From a virus: a DNA stretch of 64,000 nucleotides. The translations under genes and the position numbers were made by a program. Positions 8,308-43,992 of the stretch are shown piece by piece; positions within the stretch are counted from its first letter, which is position 1, and each line of letters opens with the position of its first letter. The stretch covers positions 1,415-65,414 of the IMG/VR virus record IMGVR_UViG_3300031520_000001. The stretch is one strand, 5' to 3'. The notes under the pieces are model-generated. The model was not told the DNA's origin. It searched no databases and saw nothing but the letters and a program-made list of their open reading frames with translations.

Positions 8308-8798
8308 GCGGTCTTGCCTTTCGGATAAAACTGCCCACGTCGTCGCCGCCACGCATAGTCACGGTTGCCAAGCGTGATATGTAGTGGCCCAACGCGTATC
8401 ACACGCACAAACAGATGTGAACCAATATCATAGCGTCCAGCATGTTCCCTCCAGTGCGTGAAAGCCCACTTCGGTACCACACGCATATGAACAGGCCATA
8501 GCATCACTTTGTCTTTCGCGTCCCATTGCCTGCCACAGGACGAACAGGTGTAGCGTTTGAACGTCACGCCGCGCTCGGTTGTTTGGTAGCAGGTGAGCTT
8601 GCCAGATACACAGTATACGCATAACGTAAGCCATATATTAACGCCGCGCTCGGTTGTTTGGTAGCAGGTGAGCTTGCCAGTGTGCAACATGCGCGTATTT
8701 TGTGGGTTACAGGTGATACATAACGGGTGCTTGTTCATTTTCTTTTCTCGTTTATGCCATGCTCGGTACTTGATTGGCTTCATCGGCTCTTTCCTCAT
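8304..8798 (-). CDS. zinc-ribbon protein carrying an in-frame 75-bp duplication/insertion
   Basis: CITC...CSSC; peptide GKLTCYQTTERGV occurs twice; start uncertain. Confidence 0.5.
   Translation of the reverse strand: MRKEPMKPIKYRAWHKREKKMNKHPLCITCNPQNTRMLHTGKLTCYQTTERGVNIWLTLCVYCVSGKLTCYQTTERGVTFKRYTCSSCGRQWDAKDKVMLWPVHMRVVPKWAFTHWREHAGRYDIGSHLFVRVIRVGPLHITLGNRDYAWRRRRGQFYPKGKTA
8566..8680. repeat. perfect 40-bp direct repeat (8566-8605, 8641-8680) flanking a 35-bp insert identical to 43585-43619 (reverse complement)
   Basis: Repeat acgccgcgctcggttgtttggtagcaggtgagcttgccag; insert atacacagtatacgcataacgtaagccatatatta. Confidence 0.95.
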
Positions 8799-21100: not shown

Positions 21101-21274
21101 ATGAACAAGAAGGAATTGAATCCGAATATTCGGGTGACGGCAGAGACGCGCAAGGACTTGAAAATCATCGCTGCTCATGAAGGCGAGACGATGTTAGAAG
21201 TGGTTGCGCGTCTTGCCAAACACGAGCGAGAACGGATACAGAAGGGAGATGCTACCCATGCTCAAAACGTATAA
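21101..21274 (+). CDS. small ribbon-helix-helix-like regulator in the IS
   Basis: NIRVTAETRKDLKIIAAHEGETMLEVVARL; GTGACA-17-TATAAT promoter with inverted repeat 21081-21102, probably leaderless. Confidence 0.65.
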   Translation: MNKKELNPNIRVTAETRKDLKIIAAHEGETMLEVVARLAKHERERIQKGDATHAQNV

Positions 21275-22520
21275 GTATCGTCTGTATCCGAACAAAGAAA
21301 CCACGTCAAGGTTGTACTGGACCCTGACCCGATGTCGAGAGTTATACAACGCCGCGCTCAGCGAATACAAAGATGCGTATCAAAAGCACATCCGTACTCG
21401 CATGCACCAAAACGAGCAAGGACAATGGATTATTGCAGAGATGCAAGCCAATGTCAGGGTCAAGAGCGTGTCCTGTTTTGAGCAAATGCGTGATGTGACA
21501 GAAATCAAAAGCGAGATACGGGAAGAGTATCAAGAGATTGCCGCGCATGTGTTACAGGACGTGTTAAAGCGATTAGACAAAGGTATGAAAGCGTTCTATC
21601 GTCGCATCGGAGAAGGACAGACCCCAGGCTTTCCCCGTTTTCAGGGACGCAACCGTTACAATAGTTTCACGTATCCTGATGGGGCTGGTTGGAAGTTAGA
21701 AGGGAACATCCTGCATCTTAGCAAGATAGGAGATATCAAGGTCAAGCTGCACAGACCCATAGAGGGGAAGATGAAGACGTGTACCATTAAGAAAGAGGTT
21801 GACCAATGGTACGTCACGTTCTCTTGTGATATCCCTGATGAGCAAGTAGGAACACATGCGCCGTATACGGATGATGCGATAGGGATTGATGTAGGCTTGT
21901 TGCACTTCGCAACCTTGAGTACAGGTGATACGATAGAGAATCCGCGCTTCTTTCGCAAGGCACAATCTGACTTGAAACGCAAACAACAACACAAAGATAG
22001 GTGTAAGCGTGGCTCTCATCGCAAAGAAAAAGCCAAGAAACAGGTTGCCAAAGCACATCATAAGATCAAGAACCAGCGACAGGATTTTCTGCACAAGCAA
22101 TCACGGCAACTTGTGAATACCTATGAAACCATTGTGTTTGAAGAGTTGCAGATTGCCAATATCAGTAAAGCCCCAAAACCAAAGCAAGATGAGCAGGGTA
22201 AATACTTGCCCAACGGGGCGGCGGCGAAGGGCGGTCTGAATAAAAGCATACTTGATGCTGGTTGGGGTCAATTCGTATCACTGTGCAAGAGCAAAGCAGC
22301 ATACGCTGGCCTTGTCACGGTGCTTACCGTTGACCCCAAATATACCAGTCAAGTCTGTAGCGGATGTGGTCAAGTGCGGAAGAAAACACTTGATGAGCGG
22401 TGGCACTCATGCGAGTGCGGATGTGAACTCGATAGGGACCATAACGCCGCACTCAACATCCTGACCAAAGGATTACAAACACTTTCGGGTGGGACGCACC
22501 CAACGCTGGCAACAGCGTAG
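21258..22520 (+). CDS. tnpB: TnpB RNA-guided endonuclease
   Basis: KTYKYRLYP start, GFPRF, RuvC IGIDVG / IVFEEL / DRDHNAALN, zinc finger CSGC...CEC. Confidence 0.95.
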   Translation: MLKTYKYRLYPNKETTSRLYWTLTRCRELYNAALSEYKDAYQKHIRTRMHQNEQGQWIIAEMQANVRVKSVSCFEQMRDVTEIKSEIREEYQEIAAHVLQDVLKRLDKGMKAFYRRIGEGQTPGFPRFQGRNRYNSFTYPDGAGWKLEGNILHLSKIGDIKVKLHRPIEGKMKTCTIKKEVDQWYVTFSCDIPDEQVGTHAPYTDDAIGIDVGLLHFATLSTGDTIENPRFFRKAQSDLKRKQQHKDRCKRGSHRKEKAKKQVAKAHHKIKNQRQDFLHKQSRQLVNTYETIVFEELQIANISKAPKPKQDEQGKYLPNGAAAKGGLNKSILDAGWGQFVSLCKSKAAYAGLVTVLTVDPKYTSQVCSGCGQVRKKTLDERWHSCECGCELDRDHNAALNILTKGLQTLSGGTHPTLATA

Positions 22521-32888: not shown

Positions 32889-34073
32889 ATGGAGTTTCAC
32901 GAAGTAGCTAACCTTTTCCCTTTTATCGAAGGGGAAGAGTTTGATAATCTGGTAAAAGATATCAAAGAGAACGGATTACAGCAACCCATCTGGACATATC
33001 AAGGCAAAATTATTGATGGAAGAAACCGATACCGTGCTTGCCTTGCGTCAGGCACAACGCCAAAGTTTCAAGAGTGGGATGGTAAAGGTTCACTTGTCGC
33101 CTTTACCATCAGCCTTAACGTCAAACGTAGACATCTTACAAGCAGCCAGTTAGGGATAATTTCACTAAAGGTTGAAGAGCAGTTCGCTATCGAAGCCGCT
33201 AAAAATGTATCGCTTGGTGGGGCAAATCATCAAGGGAACCAATACACGGAGACAGAATTGGAAGGTTTGCCAAATTTGGCAAACCTTCCAATTGAGCCAA
33301 TTCACGCTGCGGAAGAAACCGCCAAATTACTGGGAGTTAGTCATAGTTACGTAAGCACTGCTAAGGCAATCGAGAGGGACGCCCCTGAACTGCTTGATCA
33401 CGTCTTAGCAGGAACACTCACTATCCCCGATGCTAAAACGATATCAGATTTACCCAAAGAACGCAGGGATAAGATTGTCGAAAAGGTTGTGCAACGAAAA
33501 GAGGAAGAGGGGAAGAGAGTAAGCCGCTCGGTCAAAGAGGCTATCTGGGAAGATGAAATACCCTCTAAGTTAAGTGATCCTAACCTCATGAAAATTATGA
33601 GTAGTAGCGAGTCCCCAGAATGGTATACCCCAGAAGATGTTATCGCGCGTGTCCTTGACCTCTTTGGAGAAATAGACCTTGACCCATGTTCTAATAGTCA
33701 TGATAAGCCCAACGTCCCTGCTCACAGACTCTACACAAGAGAAGATAATGGACTCAACAAAGCATGGTACGGCAAAGTGTATATGAACCCCCCGTATGGT
33801 AGAGAAATATCTGAATGGACTGAAAAACTCGCAGAAGAGTTCAACAAAGGACGTGTTGAAGAAGCGATTGCACTAGTGCCTGGACGCATTGATACGGCAT
33901 GGTTTCAACCAATGTATAACCATCTGATATGTACAATCAAAGGCCGACTATCATTCAGTGAAGCAGAAAGCGGCGCACCATTCCCCTCAGTAGCAATTTA
34001 TATGGGCAAGCGTCGAGAGGCATTTATTGAAGCATTCAAAAGTGTAGGGCCGATATTGGAGCGCGTTGCATGA
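32889..34073 (+). CDS. ParB-like N-terminal domain fused to phage Dam-type N6-adenine DNA methyltransferase
   Basis: L..DIK.NGL..PI...IIDGRNRYRA (ParB); EWYTP, IDLDPCS, VYMNPPYG (MTase). Confidence 0.9.
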   Translation: MEFHEVANLFPFIEGEEFDNLVKDIKENGLQQPIWTYQGKIIDGRNRYRACLASGTTPKFQEWDGKGSLVAFTISLNVKRRHLTSSQLGIISLKVEEQFAIEAAKNVSLGGANHQGNQYTETELEGLPNLANLPIEPIHAAEETAKLLGVSHSYVSTAKAIERDAPELLDHVLAGTLTIPDAKTISDLPKERRDKIVEKVVQRKEEEGKRVSRSVKEAIWEDEIPSKLSDPNLMKIMSSSESPEWYTPEDVIARVLDLFGEIDLDPCSNSHDKPNVPAHRLYTREDNGLNKAWYGKVYMNPPYGREISEWTEKLAEEFNKGRVEEAIALVPGRIDTAWFQPMYNHLICTIKGRLSFSEAESGAPFPSVAIYMGKRREAFIEAFKSVGPILERVA

Positions 34074-34828
34074 TAGACGAATACACAGAAAAGAACGATT
34101 GGCAAATAAGACTACGTGATCGCTATATCAAGCCATTCTATGAGCAAACCTGTAAAGATGCCAAATATGTTTTTGTTGATGGAAACGCCAGACCAGACAC
34201 ATGCAGTTACTATCTACAAAAAAATGTGGGGATGGACACATTTGCAATGACCAGTAAAGGCACGTCGAGTGCCATTGATGAGAAGATTGACAAGCATTAT
34301 GGCAGTCCCAACTTTATGATAGAAACGGAATCTTGCACCGTTGAGGGGCATAAAAAAGAGGGATGGATATATTATTCACTCATTGATTTACTTTTCTATG
34401 CGTTCGTTCTCCCAGAAGAAAAAGGGCTTGACCTCTATATTATCCATTTCAGGCCGTTTCAGACATGGTTCATACAAACATGGATGCCAGCCAATGGGAA
34501 CAACATAAAGAAAAATCATATTATGCCTGATACGCTCAATCATACCAAATGTATGAAAGTGCCTATTCGAGAAGTCACCAGAGCCATGAGGAACACAAGA
34601 CGCTTTCTCATTACGCGAAATGGTATTCAGTTACTCAACACCGAGACCTCTATATTTGAACTCGACAAAATGCTGAAAAATCTTGACCTGGGTAGTTGTC
34701 CTAATGTCCTAGAGGCAACGCAATCCGAGCAAGTGCAAGAAGCGCAGATACCAGCAAAAAAGACAGCAAAAAAGAAGAAAACACCTATTCCTAGTGGGCA
34801 ACTATCTATATGGGAGACCTCAGCATAA
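34070..34828 (+). CDS. putative PD-(D/E)XK-fold nuclease
   Basis: GMD...IDEKID...NFMIE..S...GW..Y...D pattern; coupled to the MTase. Confidence 0.5.
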   Translation: MIDEYTEKNDWQIRLRDRYIKPFYEQTCKDAKYVFVDGNARPDTCSYYLQKNVGMDTFAMTSKGTSSAIDEKIDKHYGSPNFMIETESCTVEGHKKEGWIYYSLIDLLFYAFVLPEEKGLDLYIIHFRPFQTWFIQTWMPANGNNIKKNHIMPDTLNHTKCMKVPIREVTRAMRNTRRFLITRNGIQLLNTETSIFELDKMLKNLDLGSCPNVLEATQSEQVQEAQIPAKKTAKKKKTPIPSGQLSIWETSA

Positions 34829-35371: not shown

Positions 35372-35645
35372 ACGCTGGCATCGACCAGCGTAACAATCTA
35401 TTAGTAGCCACGATGCGACCTGACAATTGGAACCTGCTAAGTCGCACCGCTAGATTAACGCTACCTGTGTATAGTGTACACAGTACGCTTGACGTTTGTC
35501 AATTGCGTGAATTGCGTACAGTAGCACAGGGTAGCTCTATGGAGCGTATGCCCATGATCAACACAATCCTCATCAAACTCCCGTATCTTGCAGTAGCAGT
35601 CATCTATTGCGCCGCATTCGCTGTTGCCAGAAGGCAGGTGACGCG

Positions 35646-36299
35646 ATGAGCACTGTACCAACGCTTCAATTAGCTGATAAGAGCGGACTTGCGTGGTGTC
35701 AGACACAAGTTCAGCATTTCCACTATCTCCATAAGCCCGTTGACGTTCGCTGTAGTCCAGTGGCCTATATCATCGCGATGGATAACGAGCGTGTTGGCTG
35801 CCTCATCTTTGGTAGACCTGAATCAACACGTTGCAATGGTTGGTACGGCTCGTTAGAAGACGTGGCAAACGGCAAATGTCGCCTTAGTCGATGGCAAGTG
35901 CTCAATTTAGCACGTGTCTGGTTATCTCCCGATGTGCAACGTAACGGCCCGCACTATATACCGAATGCAGCGACGTATTGCATAGCACAGTCATTAAAAC
36001 GTATTGTCTGTGACTACCTCATCATGAAACCGCCTGTATGGATACAAGAGCCATACGAGATTGCAGAATGTATGAGCTATTGTGATAGCCGTATCCATAC
36101 AGGCATCTTGTACAAAGCTTCCAATTTCCAATTTATTCGTAAAAATGATTATGGCATTGAGACCTACGCTCGTTCAGTACGTCGCCTTTCCCATGCAGAG
36201 AAAGCAATCATTCATCAGCACTCTGAACAGAGTAAGCGGTGCCAGAAGTTACGAGCATCACGCGCCCAAATGCAGTTGTGGGAAGAGGTGCCGGTATGA
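35646..36299 (+). CDS. Mom-like (GNAT-fold) DNA base modification protein
   Basis: HYLHK, G.L.FGRP, LARVWL, N.AT..IA.SL, SYCD...HTG.LYKASNF resemble the phage Mu Mom family. Confidence 0.7.
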   Translation: MSTVPTLQLADKSGLAWCQTQVQHFHYLHKPVDVRCSPVAYIIAMDNERVGCLIFGRPESTRCNGWYGSLEDVANGKCRLSRWQVLNLARVWLSPDVQRNGPHYIPNAATYCIAQSLKRIVCDYLIMKPPVWIQEPYEIAECMSYCDSRIHTGILYKASNFQFIRKNDYGIETYARSVRRLSHAEKAIIHQHSEQSKRCQKLRASRAQMQLWEEVPV

Positions 36300-36390: not shown

Positions 36391-37836
36391 ATGAGCATAA
36401 AGCGTACCACGTATAAAGGTCTCTCGTTTCCAGAAGACGACACCTACCTGAACGTCCGACCAGCATTTACACGCATGTGCATGGAGAGTAAATGCGCCTC
36501 AAAGCTGCTGAGTGCTCTTATCTTCAAATGGGACCCAGGAGAGGGCGTTGAGGTAGAGAAGGTCAACACATTCAGTATACAGCTTACACAGGCCGAAATT
36601 ATCAAGGCCATGTGTGATGAAGCAACTTCAAAGACAATACACGATGCTGCTATGCCCTGCCTACATCTTTTCGGCTATGCAGATGTCGATGAAACTACCT
36701 ATCCTTTTACGTATACCGTCCACATGGATAGAGTGCGTGAAGGTCTCTCCTACTGCAAACAGGGACCCAAACAATTAGAAAAAGTTCTAATTGTTTGGGC
36801 AAGGGAAAAAGGGCTAGATAAGCCTGATGGGAACGTGCTCAATAAGAAAAACTTCCATATCGCATTAGAAAAAGTTCTAATTATAATTAGAGAAACTTCT
36901 AATTCAATTGGAAATAGTTCTAATTCTTGTGGAAAAACTTCTAATTCACGAAGAGGGCGTAAGCGTAGAGTACAAGCGGTCTCAACTACCCAAATCGAAG
37001 ACCCTAAGAACAATAAGCACTCTAAGCACATTGAAGAACAAGAAAGAGAGAGTAGCGAAATCGAAACATTTGTTGATGCTGAACGCATCAACGCCTCTCC
37101 CTCTTTTTCAGAACTTCTTGCAGAGACGGACGCACGAATAGAACACGAGTTTGAGGACTGGTTACGCATTGCCTCACTCAACGCGCAGCTTTCTTCTGAG
37201 CAAGAAGCACAACCATTGGAAGTTACACAAGCACTTGCGCGTAACCCTGGTGGGGGTAGCACAGTACAGCAACCAAGCGTTCCTATAGCCTCACCAAGCA
37301 CGGAACCGACGCCGGAGCAGGATGGAAAAGGCAAGGGCAAACGAGGGACACGTAGCAAACAAGAAATAACGCCTGAACAAAAAGCACGCACGTCTGCCCT
37401 CATGGAGTATATTGACTCGTTGCTGCAGGAGGTAACAGGCGATGCGAACGAGGGATTTGACCGCAGTACCAAAGTGGGACAAGAGGCACTCCACAAAGTG
37501 TTGTTTGGGCACAAGAATAGCGAACAACGTGTCAATCCGCGCCGTGTCCGCAAAATCTTTACTGCCATGTGGAACGAGCCGCCGAATCCCCGAACTGGCT
37601 ATTGGCTTCGCAACAACATGAGCTACAACAAGTTTTGTGAAGAGTTTGAGAAACGGATACACGCGATCATTGCTGATGAGAACAAAGGCAAGTCGAATCT
37701 GTCCCTTGTGCAAGGGACAGCAACGCAAGCACCTACCGAGCTTGGCGGGTACAAAACATGGATACCTGACGATGATACTGATATCGACTATGACGCGATA
37801 CAAGCACCGCGACTCAAGAATAAAGTGAGGGCATAA
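36391..37836 (+). CDS. replication initiator protein
   Basis: Upstream of dnaB, internal iteron-like repeats, low-complexity linker. Confidence 0.7.
   Translation: MSIKRTTYKGLSFPEDDTYLNVRPAFTRMCMESKCASKLLSALIFKWDPGEGVEVEKVNTFSIQLTQAEIIKAMCDEATSKTIHDAAMPCLHLFGYADVDETTYPFTYTVHMDRVREGLSYCKQGPKQLEKVLIVWAREKGLDKPDGNVLNKKNFHIALEKVLIIIRETSNSIGNSSNSCGKTSNSRRGRKRRVQAVSTTQIEDPKNNKHSKHIEEQERESSEIETFVDAERINASPSFSELLAETDARIEHEFEDWLRIASLNAQLSSEQEAQPLEVTQALARNPGGGSTVQQPSVPIASPSTEPTPEQDGKGKGKRGTRSKQEITPEQKARTSALMEYIDSLLQEVTGDANEGFDRSTKVGQEALHKVLFGHKNSEQRVNPRRVRKIFTAMWNEPPNPRTGYWLRNNMSYNKFCEEFEKRIHAIIADENKGKSNLSLVQGTATQAPTELGGYKTWIPDDDTDIDYDAIQAPRLKNKVRA
36774..36946 (+). repeat. iteron-like repeats (putative origin) inside the initiator gene
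   Basis: TTCTAATT at 36785, 36875, 36897, 36918, 36939 (last four spaced 21-22 bp); 19-bp identical pair 36774-36792 and 36864-36882. Confidence 0.75.
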
Positions 37837-39500: not shown

Positions 39501-39844
39501 CCAAACACGTCGCATGGATAGCACAGCATCCAACCGTCACGCTTGCCTCGTATCGCTGCTGTCTCTGTGGCGGCTATGTCCGAAACGGCGTCTCGCTTCC
39601 TGATGCTTCCTACGACTTCTGTAGCAGTAACTACGTGTGTTGGTGTGCGTACCTGCTCCTCAAGACGCTAGCGAGACATGACAGGGCTACAGCGCGATAT
39701 GAGGACGTGGCGAGCATGTCACACGACGCAGTGTGCGCGATGCTGGTAGCATGTAGAGATGAGGTGGAGCAGGTGGAGACGGTGTTACCGGAAGATTGGT
39801 GTTACATTGAGAGTCAAGTGAGAAGATTGGAGCAAGTTGCATGA
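39497..39844 (+). CDS. Cys-rich hypothetical protein
   Basis: CCLCG...CSS..VC.C. Confidence 0.55.
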   Translation: MTKHVAWIAQHPTVTLASYRCCLCGGYVRNGVSLPDASYDFCSSNYVCWCAYLLLKTLARHDRATARYEDVASMSHDAVCAMLVACRDEVEQVETVLPEDWCYIESQVRRLEQVA

Positions 39845-41292
39845 ATATTGCATCAGGGCTTGATGTGACAGTTGAAAACTTTGTAGGAAGATGTGTTGCA
39901 CTGCTTGGTATCACTGGCTCTGGTAAAACGAATACAGCAGCCGTACTCATCGAAGAGTTACTTGGTCAAGGTTTACCGATGACCATTATAGACATCGAAG
40001 GCGAATATTGGGGTCTCAAGCAAAAGTTCGACTTACTCATTGCTGGCAAATCCGAACATGCAGAGCTTGCTATCAGTCCTGAGAATGCAGGTGCTCTTGC
40101 AACCGCGTCAGTGACACGTGGTCTCTCGGTCATTCTCGACTTGTCAGAATACACGCAAGAGGAGATGCACACATTCTTGGAAGAATACTTTGCGTCGTTG
40201 TGGGAAGCATCGTCAAAGGTGAAACAACCGTATCAGATTGTGCTTGAAGAGGCGCATGAGTTCATTCCGCAGGGCGCATCAACGCCCTTAAAGCAGATGT
40301 TGACCCGTATCGCGCTGAGAGGTCGTAAGCGAGGACTCGGCACAATCATCATGTCACAACGTAGCGCAAAAGTCGAGAAAGATGTGCTCACGCAAGCGTC
40401 TTTACTCTTTCTCCATAAGGTGGTCCATCCAACCGACATGCGTGTCTACAACGACCTGATACCTTTGCCTTCCAAAGAGGTTGAGAGCATGGTAGGAGCC
40501 TTACACCCTGGTCAAGTGGTGGTAGTGAGTAATCACGTTCCACAAGTGGCACAGATACGGCTACGTGACACCTTCCATGCTGGTTCTACCCCGACGCTGG
40601 GTCAAGTGGCACAGCCTGAATTACGACATGTGGACGCATCGCTGTTACAGGATTTAGAAAAGTTGATAGCCGCCTCAACGCCACACAGTGCAAAGGATGA
40701 GAAGCGACTAGAGAAGAAAGTCAAGCATTTAGAAGCTGTTCTTCTTGAGAAAGATGCGACGATAGCAAAGCAAGTATCGCAGATCGAGATGTTAGGCCGC
40801 TTATCCGTGTCGATGCAAGGTGGTATCAAAGCCGATGTGACGATGCCAGAAACCATGCAGATTGCACAGGCCAACATCGACAAGGCAACGGTCAATCATG
40901 CCATGATGCCGACTACAGCAGTGCAAACAGCGACAGTGGTTGAGTCAGTGCCAGTAAAGAAGATTGCAGAAGTATCAGCAAACAAGCCGATTCCTTTCAA
41001 TGAGAAAAAGGTACTGGCATTGAAAAGTTGGCTTGTGAAAAATAGCAAAACTCACCATCGAAAAATGCTCGTATTGCTTCATCAAGAGCAAAAGGCCATG
41101 AGTGTCTATGAACTCTCTTCATGGCTCAATATCAGTGAAAACACCATACGAGATCATCCCCCGACAGCTTTCATGAAAAGAGGATTGCTTGCAAGAGATA
41201 GACACGGTATCTATACATCCACGCTGGACGCATTTATCCAGACGGAGTTTCCAGGTGCAAAGAGCGCAGAAGTGATACAACATCTTTTTTAG
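39841..41292 (+). CDS. HerA/DUF87-like ATPase with C-terminal winged-helix-like domain
   Basis: GITGSGKT, IIDIEGEY, IVLEEAHEF.PQ, RGRKRGLG...SQR. Confidence 0.85.
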   Translation: MNIASGLDVTVENFVGRCVALLGITGSGKTNTAAVLIEELLGQGLPMTIIDIEGEYWGLKQKFDLLIAGKSEHAELAISPENAGALATASVTRGLSVILDLSEYTQEEMHTFLEEYFASLWEASSKVKQPYQIVLEEAHEFIPQGASTPLKQMLTRIALRGRKRGLGTIIMSQRSAKVEKDVLTQASLLFLHKVVHPTDMRVYNDLIPLPSKEVESMVGALHPGQVVVVSNHVPQVAQIRLRDTFHAGSTPTLGQVAQPELRHVDASLLQDLEKLIAASTPHSAKDEKRLEKKVKHLEAVLLEKDATIAKQVSQIEMLGRLSVSMQGGIKADVTMPETMQIAQANIDKATVNHAMMPTTAVQTATVVESVPVKKIAEVSANKPIPFNEKKVLALKSWLVKNSKTHHRKMLVLLHQEQKAMSVYELSSWLNISENTIRDHPPTAFMKRGLLARDRHGIYTSTLDAFIQTEFPGAKSAEVIQHLF

Positions 41293-41310
41293 ATGAGAAA
41301 GGAGAGAACG

Positions 41311-41664
41311 ATGGAACAAGAGGAGAATGCTACTACATCTGTGCAGGAATTTTCTGAAGGACTCACTACGTTTTTTGAGGCAATGTCAACGTATATGACA
41401 CAAGTTGCACAGCAGGTCTTGCCTAGTATCAAAAATATGTATGACATGATTTATGCTGAATATCAGAAGTATGGTGCTCCCTATGGCGACTTACCAGAAG
41501 GCTGTATGCGGTGGTTGACAGAACGCCATGAGGCACAACGTTTGATCGACGAAGCGCAATCTATCGTTGACCATCACGAAGGACTTGCATACTTACGGAA
41601 GAAGATAGCGGAACGAAGAGAGCTGTCCCATGACGAAATTGAGCAAGAGCATCAAGTCGAATAG
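41311..41664 (+). CDS. hypothetical protein
   Basis: 117 aa, AAGGAG RBS. Confidence 0.6.
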   Translation: MEQEENATTSVQEFSEGLTTFFEAMSTYMTQVAQQVLPSIKNMYDMIYAEYQKYGAPYGDLPEGCMRWLTERHEAQRLIDEAQSIVDHHEGLAYLRKKIAERRELSHDEIEQEHQVE

Positions 41665-41673
41665 GAGAATGAG

Positions 41674-41853
41674 ATGAATAAAGCGTTGCTGTGGCTCGCA
41701 CAACAACACAACATGCAGATACAGCACGCAGACGAGCAGTGCTATCTTTGTGGCACGTCCTGTACCTCATCGCATCTCGTCGAAAAGACGATAGCAGACA
41801 CGTTTAATTCGCATTTTCTCGCGCAGTGTCCATTGTCAAGGCAGGAAGGATAG
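41674..41853 (+). pseudogene. truncated Csf1/Cas8-like zinc-finger N-terminus (59 aa)
   Basis: Manual translation ...EQCYLCGTSCTSSHLVEKTIADTFNSHFLAQCPLSRQEG*; stops before the expected second CxxC. Confidence 0.5.
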
Positions 41854-41857
41854 AGCG

Positions 41858-42139
41858 ATGAAACAAGCGTTACGAGAGGCACTAGGCAAAGCAGTACGTG
41901 ACGAATGGGTACGATGGGCTAGTGAGCAACCCAACCCGAAACCGTCACACCTTGAAGCATGGGAGACGTTGAACGAACAAGATAAGGAAGTGGATAGGCG
42001 AATAGGCGAAGCGGCGGTCCTACGTTTTATGGACTTAATGGTTGCCAATATCACGCCCGTAGTCTTTAGCAGCGACGATAAAGAATTTCAGGATGCTGCA
42101 AAATTCCTAGAAGGACAATCGTCTCCGCAAATAGAATAG
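41858..42139 (+). CDS. conserved phage hypothetical protein
   Basis: LG..VRDEWV.WA..QP.PKPS.L..W..L.E.DKE.DR.IG pattern. Confidence 0.65.
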   Translation: MKQALREALGKAVRDEWVRWASEQPNPKPSHLEAWETLNEQDKEVDRRIGEAAVLRFMDLMVANITPVVFSSDDKEFQDAAKFLEGQSSPQIE

Positions 42140-43579: not shown

Positions 43580-43992
43580 ATCGTTAATATATGGCTTACG
43601 TTATGCGTATACTGTGTATAACTTGTTCGTAACTTGTGCATAAGTAAGATGTAAATAAGGAATACGTTTGTTGAGATTTACGCGTAAATAGGAGTTACTT
43701 TGTATAGTGCAAATATGGGGTATACATTATGCTTAAAGCATGTTGCGTAGAATGGGCGTCATGTGGCTTTGAGCAGGTAGCGATGAGGATTATATGTCGC
43801 AAGCTAAAATTTACGTGAGCATCATTCTAGCAAATATTTTACTTGCGACTGTTGCGGGAACGAATCCTTGTCATGCGCTTACTTCAACCTCTTAATCTTG
43901 TGTCTTATTAATAAATATCATATGATACGACTTGAAATGATATAAAATATAGTGTATGCTCCTACTATCAAATACGGAAGGGGGTACGATGA

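Follow-up and report, generated by a model that had tools for sequence, protein, structure and literature searches.

Subtype IV-B of the type IV CRISPR-Cas systems is defined by the gene set csf1, cas11, csf2 and csf3 together with a cysH-like gene (PMC8175902, PMC7038947); it has neither an array nor a Cas6, and the Csf complex of Mycobacterium sp. JS623 is one example (PMC8175902, PMC7038947, PMC7937560). The published loci lie on plasmids and sometimes on prophages, mainly in Actinobacteria (PMC8175902, PMC7038947, PMC7937560), a published survey found no arrays beside IV-B (PMC7038947), and phage-borne type IV-B has already been published. In type IV-A, the PAM interface is made by the zinc-finger N-terminal domain of Cas8 with Cas5 (PMC11519345). 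The phage locus described here retains only 55 codons of csf1 and no cas11, csf2, csf3 or cysH, whereas the clade to which this csf1 belongs is phage-borne and has the same gene set and order as the described IV-B systems. The stub is very probably a dispensable pseudogene remnant, left by the deletion of a presumably array-less type IV-B cassette from a replication operon.

The window, i.e., the whole stretch of 64,000 nt that was analysed, is part of a single 67.5-kb phage contig that encodes a terminase, a portal, a major capsid protein, an integrase, an endolysin and an IS605-family transposase-like gene. The completeness of this record was estimated by CheckV at 78%, and both contig ends fall in an apparent tape-measure gene, so that little is probably missing and a hidden copy of the cassette is unlikely. 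The stub lies in a long operon on the + strand (initiator-like gene, DnaB, two small genes, HerA-like ATPase, 117-aa gene, stub, 93-aa gene, ParA), with the following features around it (L032 and L033 are two related loci described below):

39841-41292, + strand: HerA-like ATPase (DUF87), used to anchor the synteny comparison; csf1 comes immediately after its closest relative (76%)
41296-41320, + strand: left copy of a 25-nt RBS/start-codon microhomology, 21/25 identical to 41843-41867
41311-41664, + strand: 117-aa gene with no assigned function; L032 has neither this gene nor the stub, and in L033 it is missing from the place between HerA and csf1
41664-41668, + strand: AGGAG ribosome-binding site of the csf1 stub, 5 nt before the ATG in the sequence
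41674-41853, + strand: csf1 stub ORF of 59 aa (ATG 41674, TAG 41853), from the sequence and ORF translation
41674-41838, + strand: codons 1-55 of csf1 (Cas8-like large subunit of type IV-B); DNA homology to the csf1 of relatives extends as far as ~41838-41841
41839-41853, + strand: non-homologous tail of the stub (RQEG and stop), whose codons lie in the leader of the 93-aa gene; putative deletion junction
41843-41867, + strand: right copy of that microhomology; it contains the RBS and start of the 93-aa gene and overlaps the stop codon of the stub
41858-42139, + strand: 93-aa gene with no assigned function, whose leader is the right side of the stub junction

The host is probably a member of the Chloroflexota, as weakly suggested by one 50%-identical HerA homologue named Ktedonobacteraceae, and would thereby differ from the mainly actinobacterial hosts of published IV-B. 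Scans of GTDB with csf1 and csf2 gave no match and hence no named host, while scans of IMG/VR returned no relative for HerA, ParA, the 117-aa gene or the 93-aa gene and distant ones only for DnaB. A search of the window against Rfam gave nothing, and a promoter/terminator scan stayed at chance level. Elsewhere in the window, five 19-nt repeats resembling replication-origin iterons are present at 36774-36946, inside a 486-aa gene before DnaB, and clamp-binding-like tails end both a 252-aa gene after a Dam-like methylase (34070-34828, QLSIW) and a Mom-like gene (35607-36299, QMQLW). At 8566-8680, two identical 40-nt direct repeats surround 35 nt, which when extended by 3 repeat bases form a perfect reverse match to 43582-43619; as a candidate guide array for the type IV-B cassette this repeat was set aside, as nothing was found linking it to the cassette or to the csf1 stub.

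The 59-aa ORF had been described in an earlier note as a Csf1/Cas8-like N-terminus with a good RBS, and its start, stop and AGGAG site, 5 nt upstream, were confirmed; a public gene caller also predicts it. The listed motifs are present, i.e., CYLCG (residues 23-27), K39-x-I-x-DTF and AQCPLS, then RQEG and the abrupt stop, with one minor slip in the spacing from CYLCG to K, given as nine residues and in fact 11. Codons 1-55 encode the N-terminal helix, the first CxxC of the zinc finger and an ADTFNSH motif. Among 1.84 billion proteins searched, the best phmmer match of the stub had an E-value of 1.9e-10, which was judged far beyond chance, and the longer database relatives are 51-53% identical to it over residues 1-55. 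An HMM built from 16 relatives matched the stub at E 3.9e-21 (positions 1-56 of 222), its sole match in the genome. The suggested search against Csf1 and Cas8 profiles returned, with PADLOC, two families only, both of them type IV Cas8/Csf1, at the weak E-values of 0.0024 (Csf1_0_IV) and 0.012; the full-length relatives of the stub match Csf1_0_IV at E 3e-19 to 5e-17. Over residues 1-55 the stub shares 40-55% identity with the full-length Csf1 proteins of the clade, which come from 14 distinct loci. The nearest csf1 is that of L033, at 62%, and the two are grouped in the tree (support 90/96). Pfam and NCBIfam searches of the stub gave nothing meaningful, and a search of PDB sequences with the Csf1 profile returned no hit, matches there being given only by the fold search. 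Best matches to unrelated zinc-finger proteins, or to intact 59-aa orthologues, would have spoken against this assignment; neither was seen, and a family of such orthologues is unsupported, as the near-length homologue search returned only the stub ORF itself. Of the database entries, P0008, a repetitive protein of 398 aa with five repeats, is unrelated and was removed from the comparison, and P0006 is a 291-aa Csf1 of which the contig covers only a fragment. By homology to Csf1 profiles the stub belongs to the Csf1 family, and on these sequence comparisons the 59-aa ORF is a real Csf1 fragment.

What remains falls well short of a whole protein. Intact relatives carry the invariant pairs C24/C27 and C60/C63, the two CxxC of a four-cysteine zinc finger, and a full Csf1 core has ~220-240 residues. 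The homology of the stub to Csf1 ends, in DNA and protein, at about codon 55, before the second CxxC, which is missing together with about 170 core residues; of the ligands only C23/C26 are left, with no equivalent of C60/C63, and the remaining cysteines (C30, C52) fall at variable positions. The frame terminates inside the RBS of the following 93-aa gene, and the last four residues and the stop come from that leader. An AlphaFold model of an intact Csf1 relative (pLDDT 83) matched type IV-A Csf1 in Foldseek (7xg1_A, E 7e-5; 8rc3_G, E 1.8e-4) and in VIA-align (7xfz_A, Z 11.2, rmsd 4.7, 192 residues aligned), so that intact relatives share a predicted fold with type IV-A Csf1/Cas8 (PDB 7XG1, 7XFZ, 8RC3) over about 190 residues, including the zinc-finger N-terminal domain. 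In contrast to type IV-A, these relatives accompany cas11 and cysH rather than dinG, cas6 and an array, and the stub is half a zinc finger; modelled alone, it folds poorly (pLDDT 54.5, pTM 0.23). The remainder of csf1 was sought in all frames downstream of the stub and not found, and a frameshift or readthrough of csf1 was rejected because no downstream frame resembles it. Searches of the 67.5-kb genome (tblastn and genome searches) for cas11, csf2, csf3 and cysH were also negative, with the same queries that match the loci of the relatives strongly. The genome therefore has none of the further genes of subtype IV-B, i.e., csf2 (the type IV signature gene), csf3, cas11 and the cysH-like gene, and no complex can be made. 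The stub derives from a true Csf1, and it fails both as a functional Csf1 and as a type IV-B system.

The cassette to which such a gene belongs is complete in several relatives. Our scans found 14 distinct loci with an intact csf1, nine of which show csf1-cas11-csf2-csf3-cysH in order, while the other five are cut by contig ends and contain no contradicting gene order; cysH is PAPS-reductase-like in these cassettes, and the parent cassette has the gene set of subtype IV-B. L001 had appeared broken after cas11, a reading that was rejected as csf2 begins at the contig end, past one inserted gene. In 12 of the 13 complete relatives (L001, L002, L006-L010, L012, L015, L017, L018, L020) the 3' end of csf1 overlaps the cas11 start in another frame and ends in QLDLF or QxxL(W/F), which we take to resemble a sliding-clamp binding peptide. 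A P-loop kinase-like gene stands between csf3 and cysH in two cassettes (L009:12769-13245, L018:9851-10357), and other small genes are interleaved among cas11, csf2 and csf3 in L001, L012, L017 and L018. A repeat finder run over the fetched loci reported arrays in L007 and L008 only. The CRISPR array of L007 (10194-10784; 8 repeats of 37 nt) lies 3 kb after the cysH of an intact IV-B cassette and directly after a TnpB-like gene with 51% identity to window 21204-22520. The L007 record yielded no Cas6, and the single Cas6 model PF10040 had no match in three phage records. In L008 a repeat-spacer-repeat mini-array (8580-8690, 2 repeats) is located 1.4 kb upstream of an intact csf1; its spacer had no match in the fetched loci. 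The intact phage cassettes, which form a compact clade (L002, L006-L010, L017, L018, L020), offer better material for functional work than the stub locus.

Synteny after the HerA-like gene, which had been proposed as a check, agreed in part with expectation: csf1 stands directly after the closest HerA (76%), in L033 (SRR24807094), with an orphan cysH further on, but that csf1 is itself broken, at about residue 122. L033 lacks cas11, csf2 and csf3, and its broken csf1 is followed by a tRNA-Ser gene and then by cysH, which shows 71% identity to its counterpart in the intact L006 cassette. It thus resembles the window in the slot after the HerA-like gene, in having the nearest csf1 and in the loss of cas11, csf2 and csf3, and differs in its breakpoint (~122, not 55), in having kept cysH, and in the tRNA-Ser within the gap. 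ARAGORN predicted the latter as a tRNA-Ser(GCT) of 73 nt (L033:2681-2753), which is short for a serine tRNA, as these normally carry a long variable arm. A different state is found in L032, which has 98.5% DNA identity to the window across DnaB-HerA and lacks 41321-41842 (the 117-aa gene and the stub), so that HerA is directly followed by the 93-aa gene; the first 10 codons of the latter differ from the window at 3 sites and the next 139 nt at none. The L032 junction joins the two 25-nt copies, the next best match in the window being 17/25, and the difference may be either a loss or a gain of the segment with the 117-aa gene and the stub. Between its initiator-like gene and DnaB, L032 also contains two genes that are absent from the window, one for a DNA methylase and one for an ISL3 transposase (L032:2454-4561). 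The slot is free of csf genes in the other HerA relatives (57-61%), and no intact cassette was seen there among the HerA relatives examined. The suggestion that relatives carry a full csf module at this place, deleted here, is consequently borne out as to csf1-cas11-csf2-csf3-cysH modules in relatives and complementary remnants at the slot, but not as to an intact module there; that a complete module once occupied the exact HerA slot is what we infer from these complementary remnants.

The stub shows almost no decay: of the 17 near-invariant positions, 16 are retained. It averages 49% identity with the intact Csf1 proteins, towards the bottom of the 48-61% that these show among themselves, and the branch leading to it (0.30) is not longer than those of the relatives (median 0.42). 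So little decay is expected after a recent loss, and also under ongoing selection. Between the stub and the L033 csf1, pS is 0.89 (saturated) and pN is 0.23; synonymous sites are saturated in general (pS about 0.7-0.95) and dN/dS is not estimable. A saturated pS with a pN of 0.23 indicates that csf1 was under constraint on both sides during most of the period after the two lineages split. Other short csf1 forms end at residue 55 (P0004), about 60 (P0007), about 100 (P0131) and about 122 (L033). As the breakpoints of the stub and of L033 differ, two separate, recent losses are the simplest reading, and the loss of the cassette was probably recent.

Taken together, a csf1-cas11-csf2-csf3-cysH cassette would once have stood in the early/replication operon of a tailed temperate phage, after the HerA-like gene. 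Through an illegitimate join, codon 55 of csf1 would then have come to abut the leader of the 93-aa gene; the event could have taken place in the lineage of the window or in a donor of the segment with the 117-aa gene and csf1. The product would be an unfolded peptide, short, with only half of a zinc site and probably without a role. The stub may persist as it is cheap and leaves the start of the next gene intact, and it could be removed through recombination between the two similar RBS/start sequences.

Three other accounts were weighed against this remnant of a deleted cassette. That csf1 is really intact, and the stub an assembly artefact or a frameshift, has next to no chance of being right. 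The identical stub with the same junction recurs in three other assemblies (L023-L025) from different runs, which have 0-2 differences from the window over 36.3-43.7 kb and one of which has another gene upstream and is thus a distinct variant; the stub is therefore not an assembly error, and the lack of a csf1-like frame downstream speaks against a frameshift. Also very improbable is that the stub is kept by selection as a mini-protein, be it a small metal-binding peptide or, for example, a decoy that occupies the Csf3/Cas5 contact and so poisons the type IV-B or IV-A complexes of rivals. The intact RBS and the 16 of 17 retained conserved positions would suit such a role, as would a second 55-aa form, P0004, with the same end residue 55, and the PAM interface that the Cas8 zinc-finger N-terminal domain forms with Cas5 in type IV-A (PMC11519345). 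Half of the zinc ligands are gone, however, the model of the stub is poorly folded, the other short forms end elsewhere (about 60, 100 and 122), the near-length search found no short family, the 98.5%-identical phage L032 does without the stub, and P0004 may be a frameshift or an assembly error. The more specific proposal that the 55-residue N-terminus of Csf1 is a stand-alone decoy blocking the type IV complexes of rival phages and plasmids, with P0004 as an independent second origin, is likewise very improbable.

A stronger competitor, still unlikely in our judgement, is that the stub arrived already broken, the 117-aa gene and the 55 csf1 codons having been recombined from another phage into a lineage that never had the whole cassette, with L032 as the ancestral empty state. 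The direct succession of HerA and the 93-aa gene in L032 agrees with this, the 3 differences in the first 10 codons, with none in the next 139 nt, hint at a mosaic joint, and the loci whose HerA is 57-61% identical carry no csf gene at this place. Against it, the closest HerA relative, L033, has a csf1 at the slot that is the nearest relative of the stub, which makes the HerA-csf1 link older than L032, and the 25-nt microhomology makes L032 simply a deletion. Under either order of events the stub is a non-functional remnant, and only the order differs.

As an ordinary gene remnant, the stub itself is of little weight, and its modest value is evolutionary. One syntenic slot presents three loss states, i.e., csf1 residues 1-55 only, csf1 residues 1-122 with cysH, and nothing, which points to the type IV-B cassette, to which no function is assigned here, as an optional phage accessory that is shed repeatedly and piecemeal, and in which cysH can remain, at least temporarily, after the Csf complex is gone.
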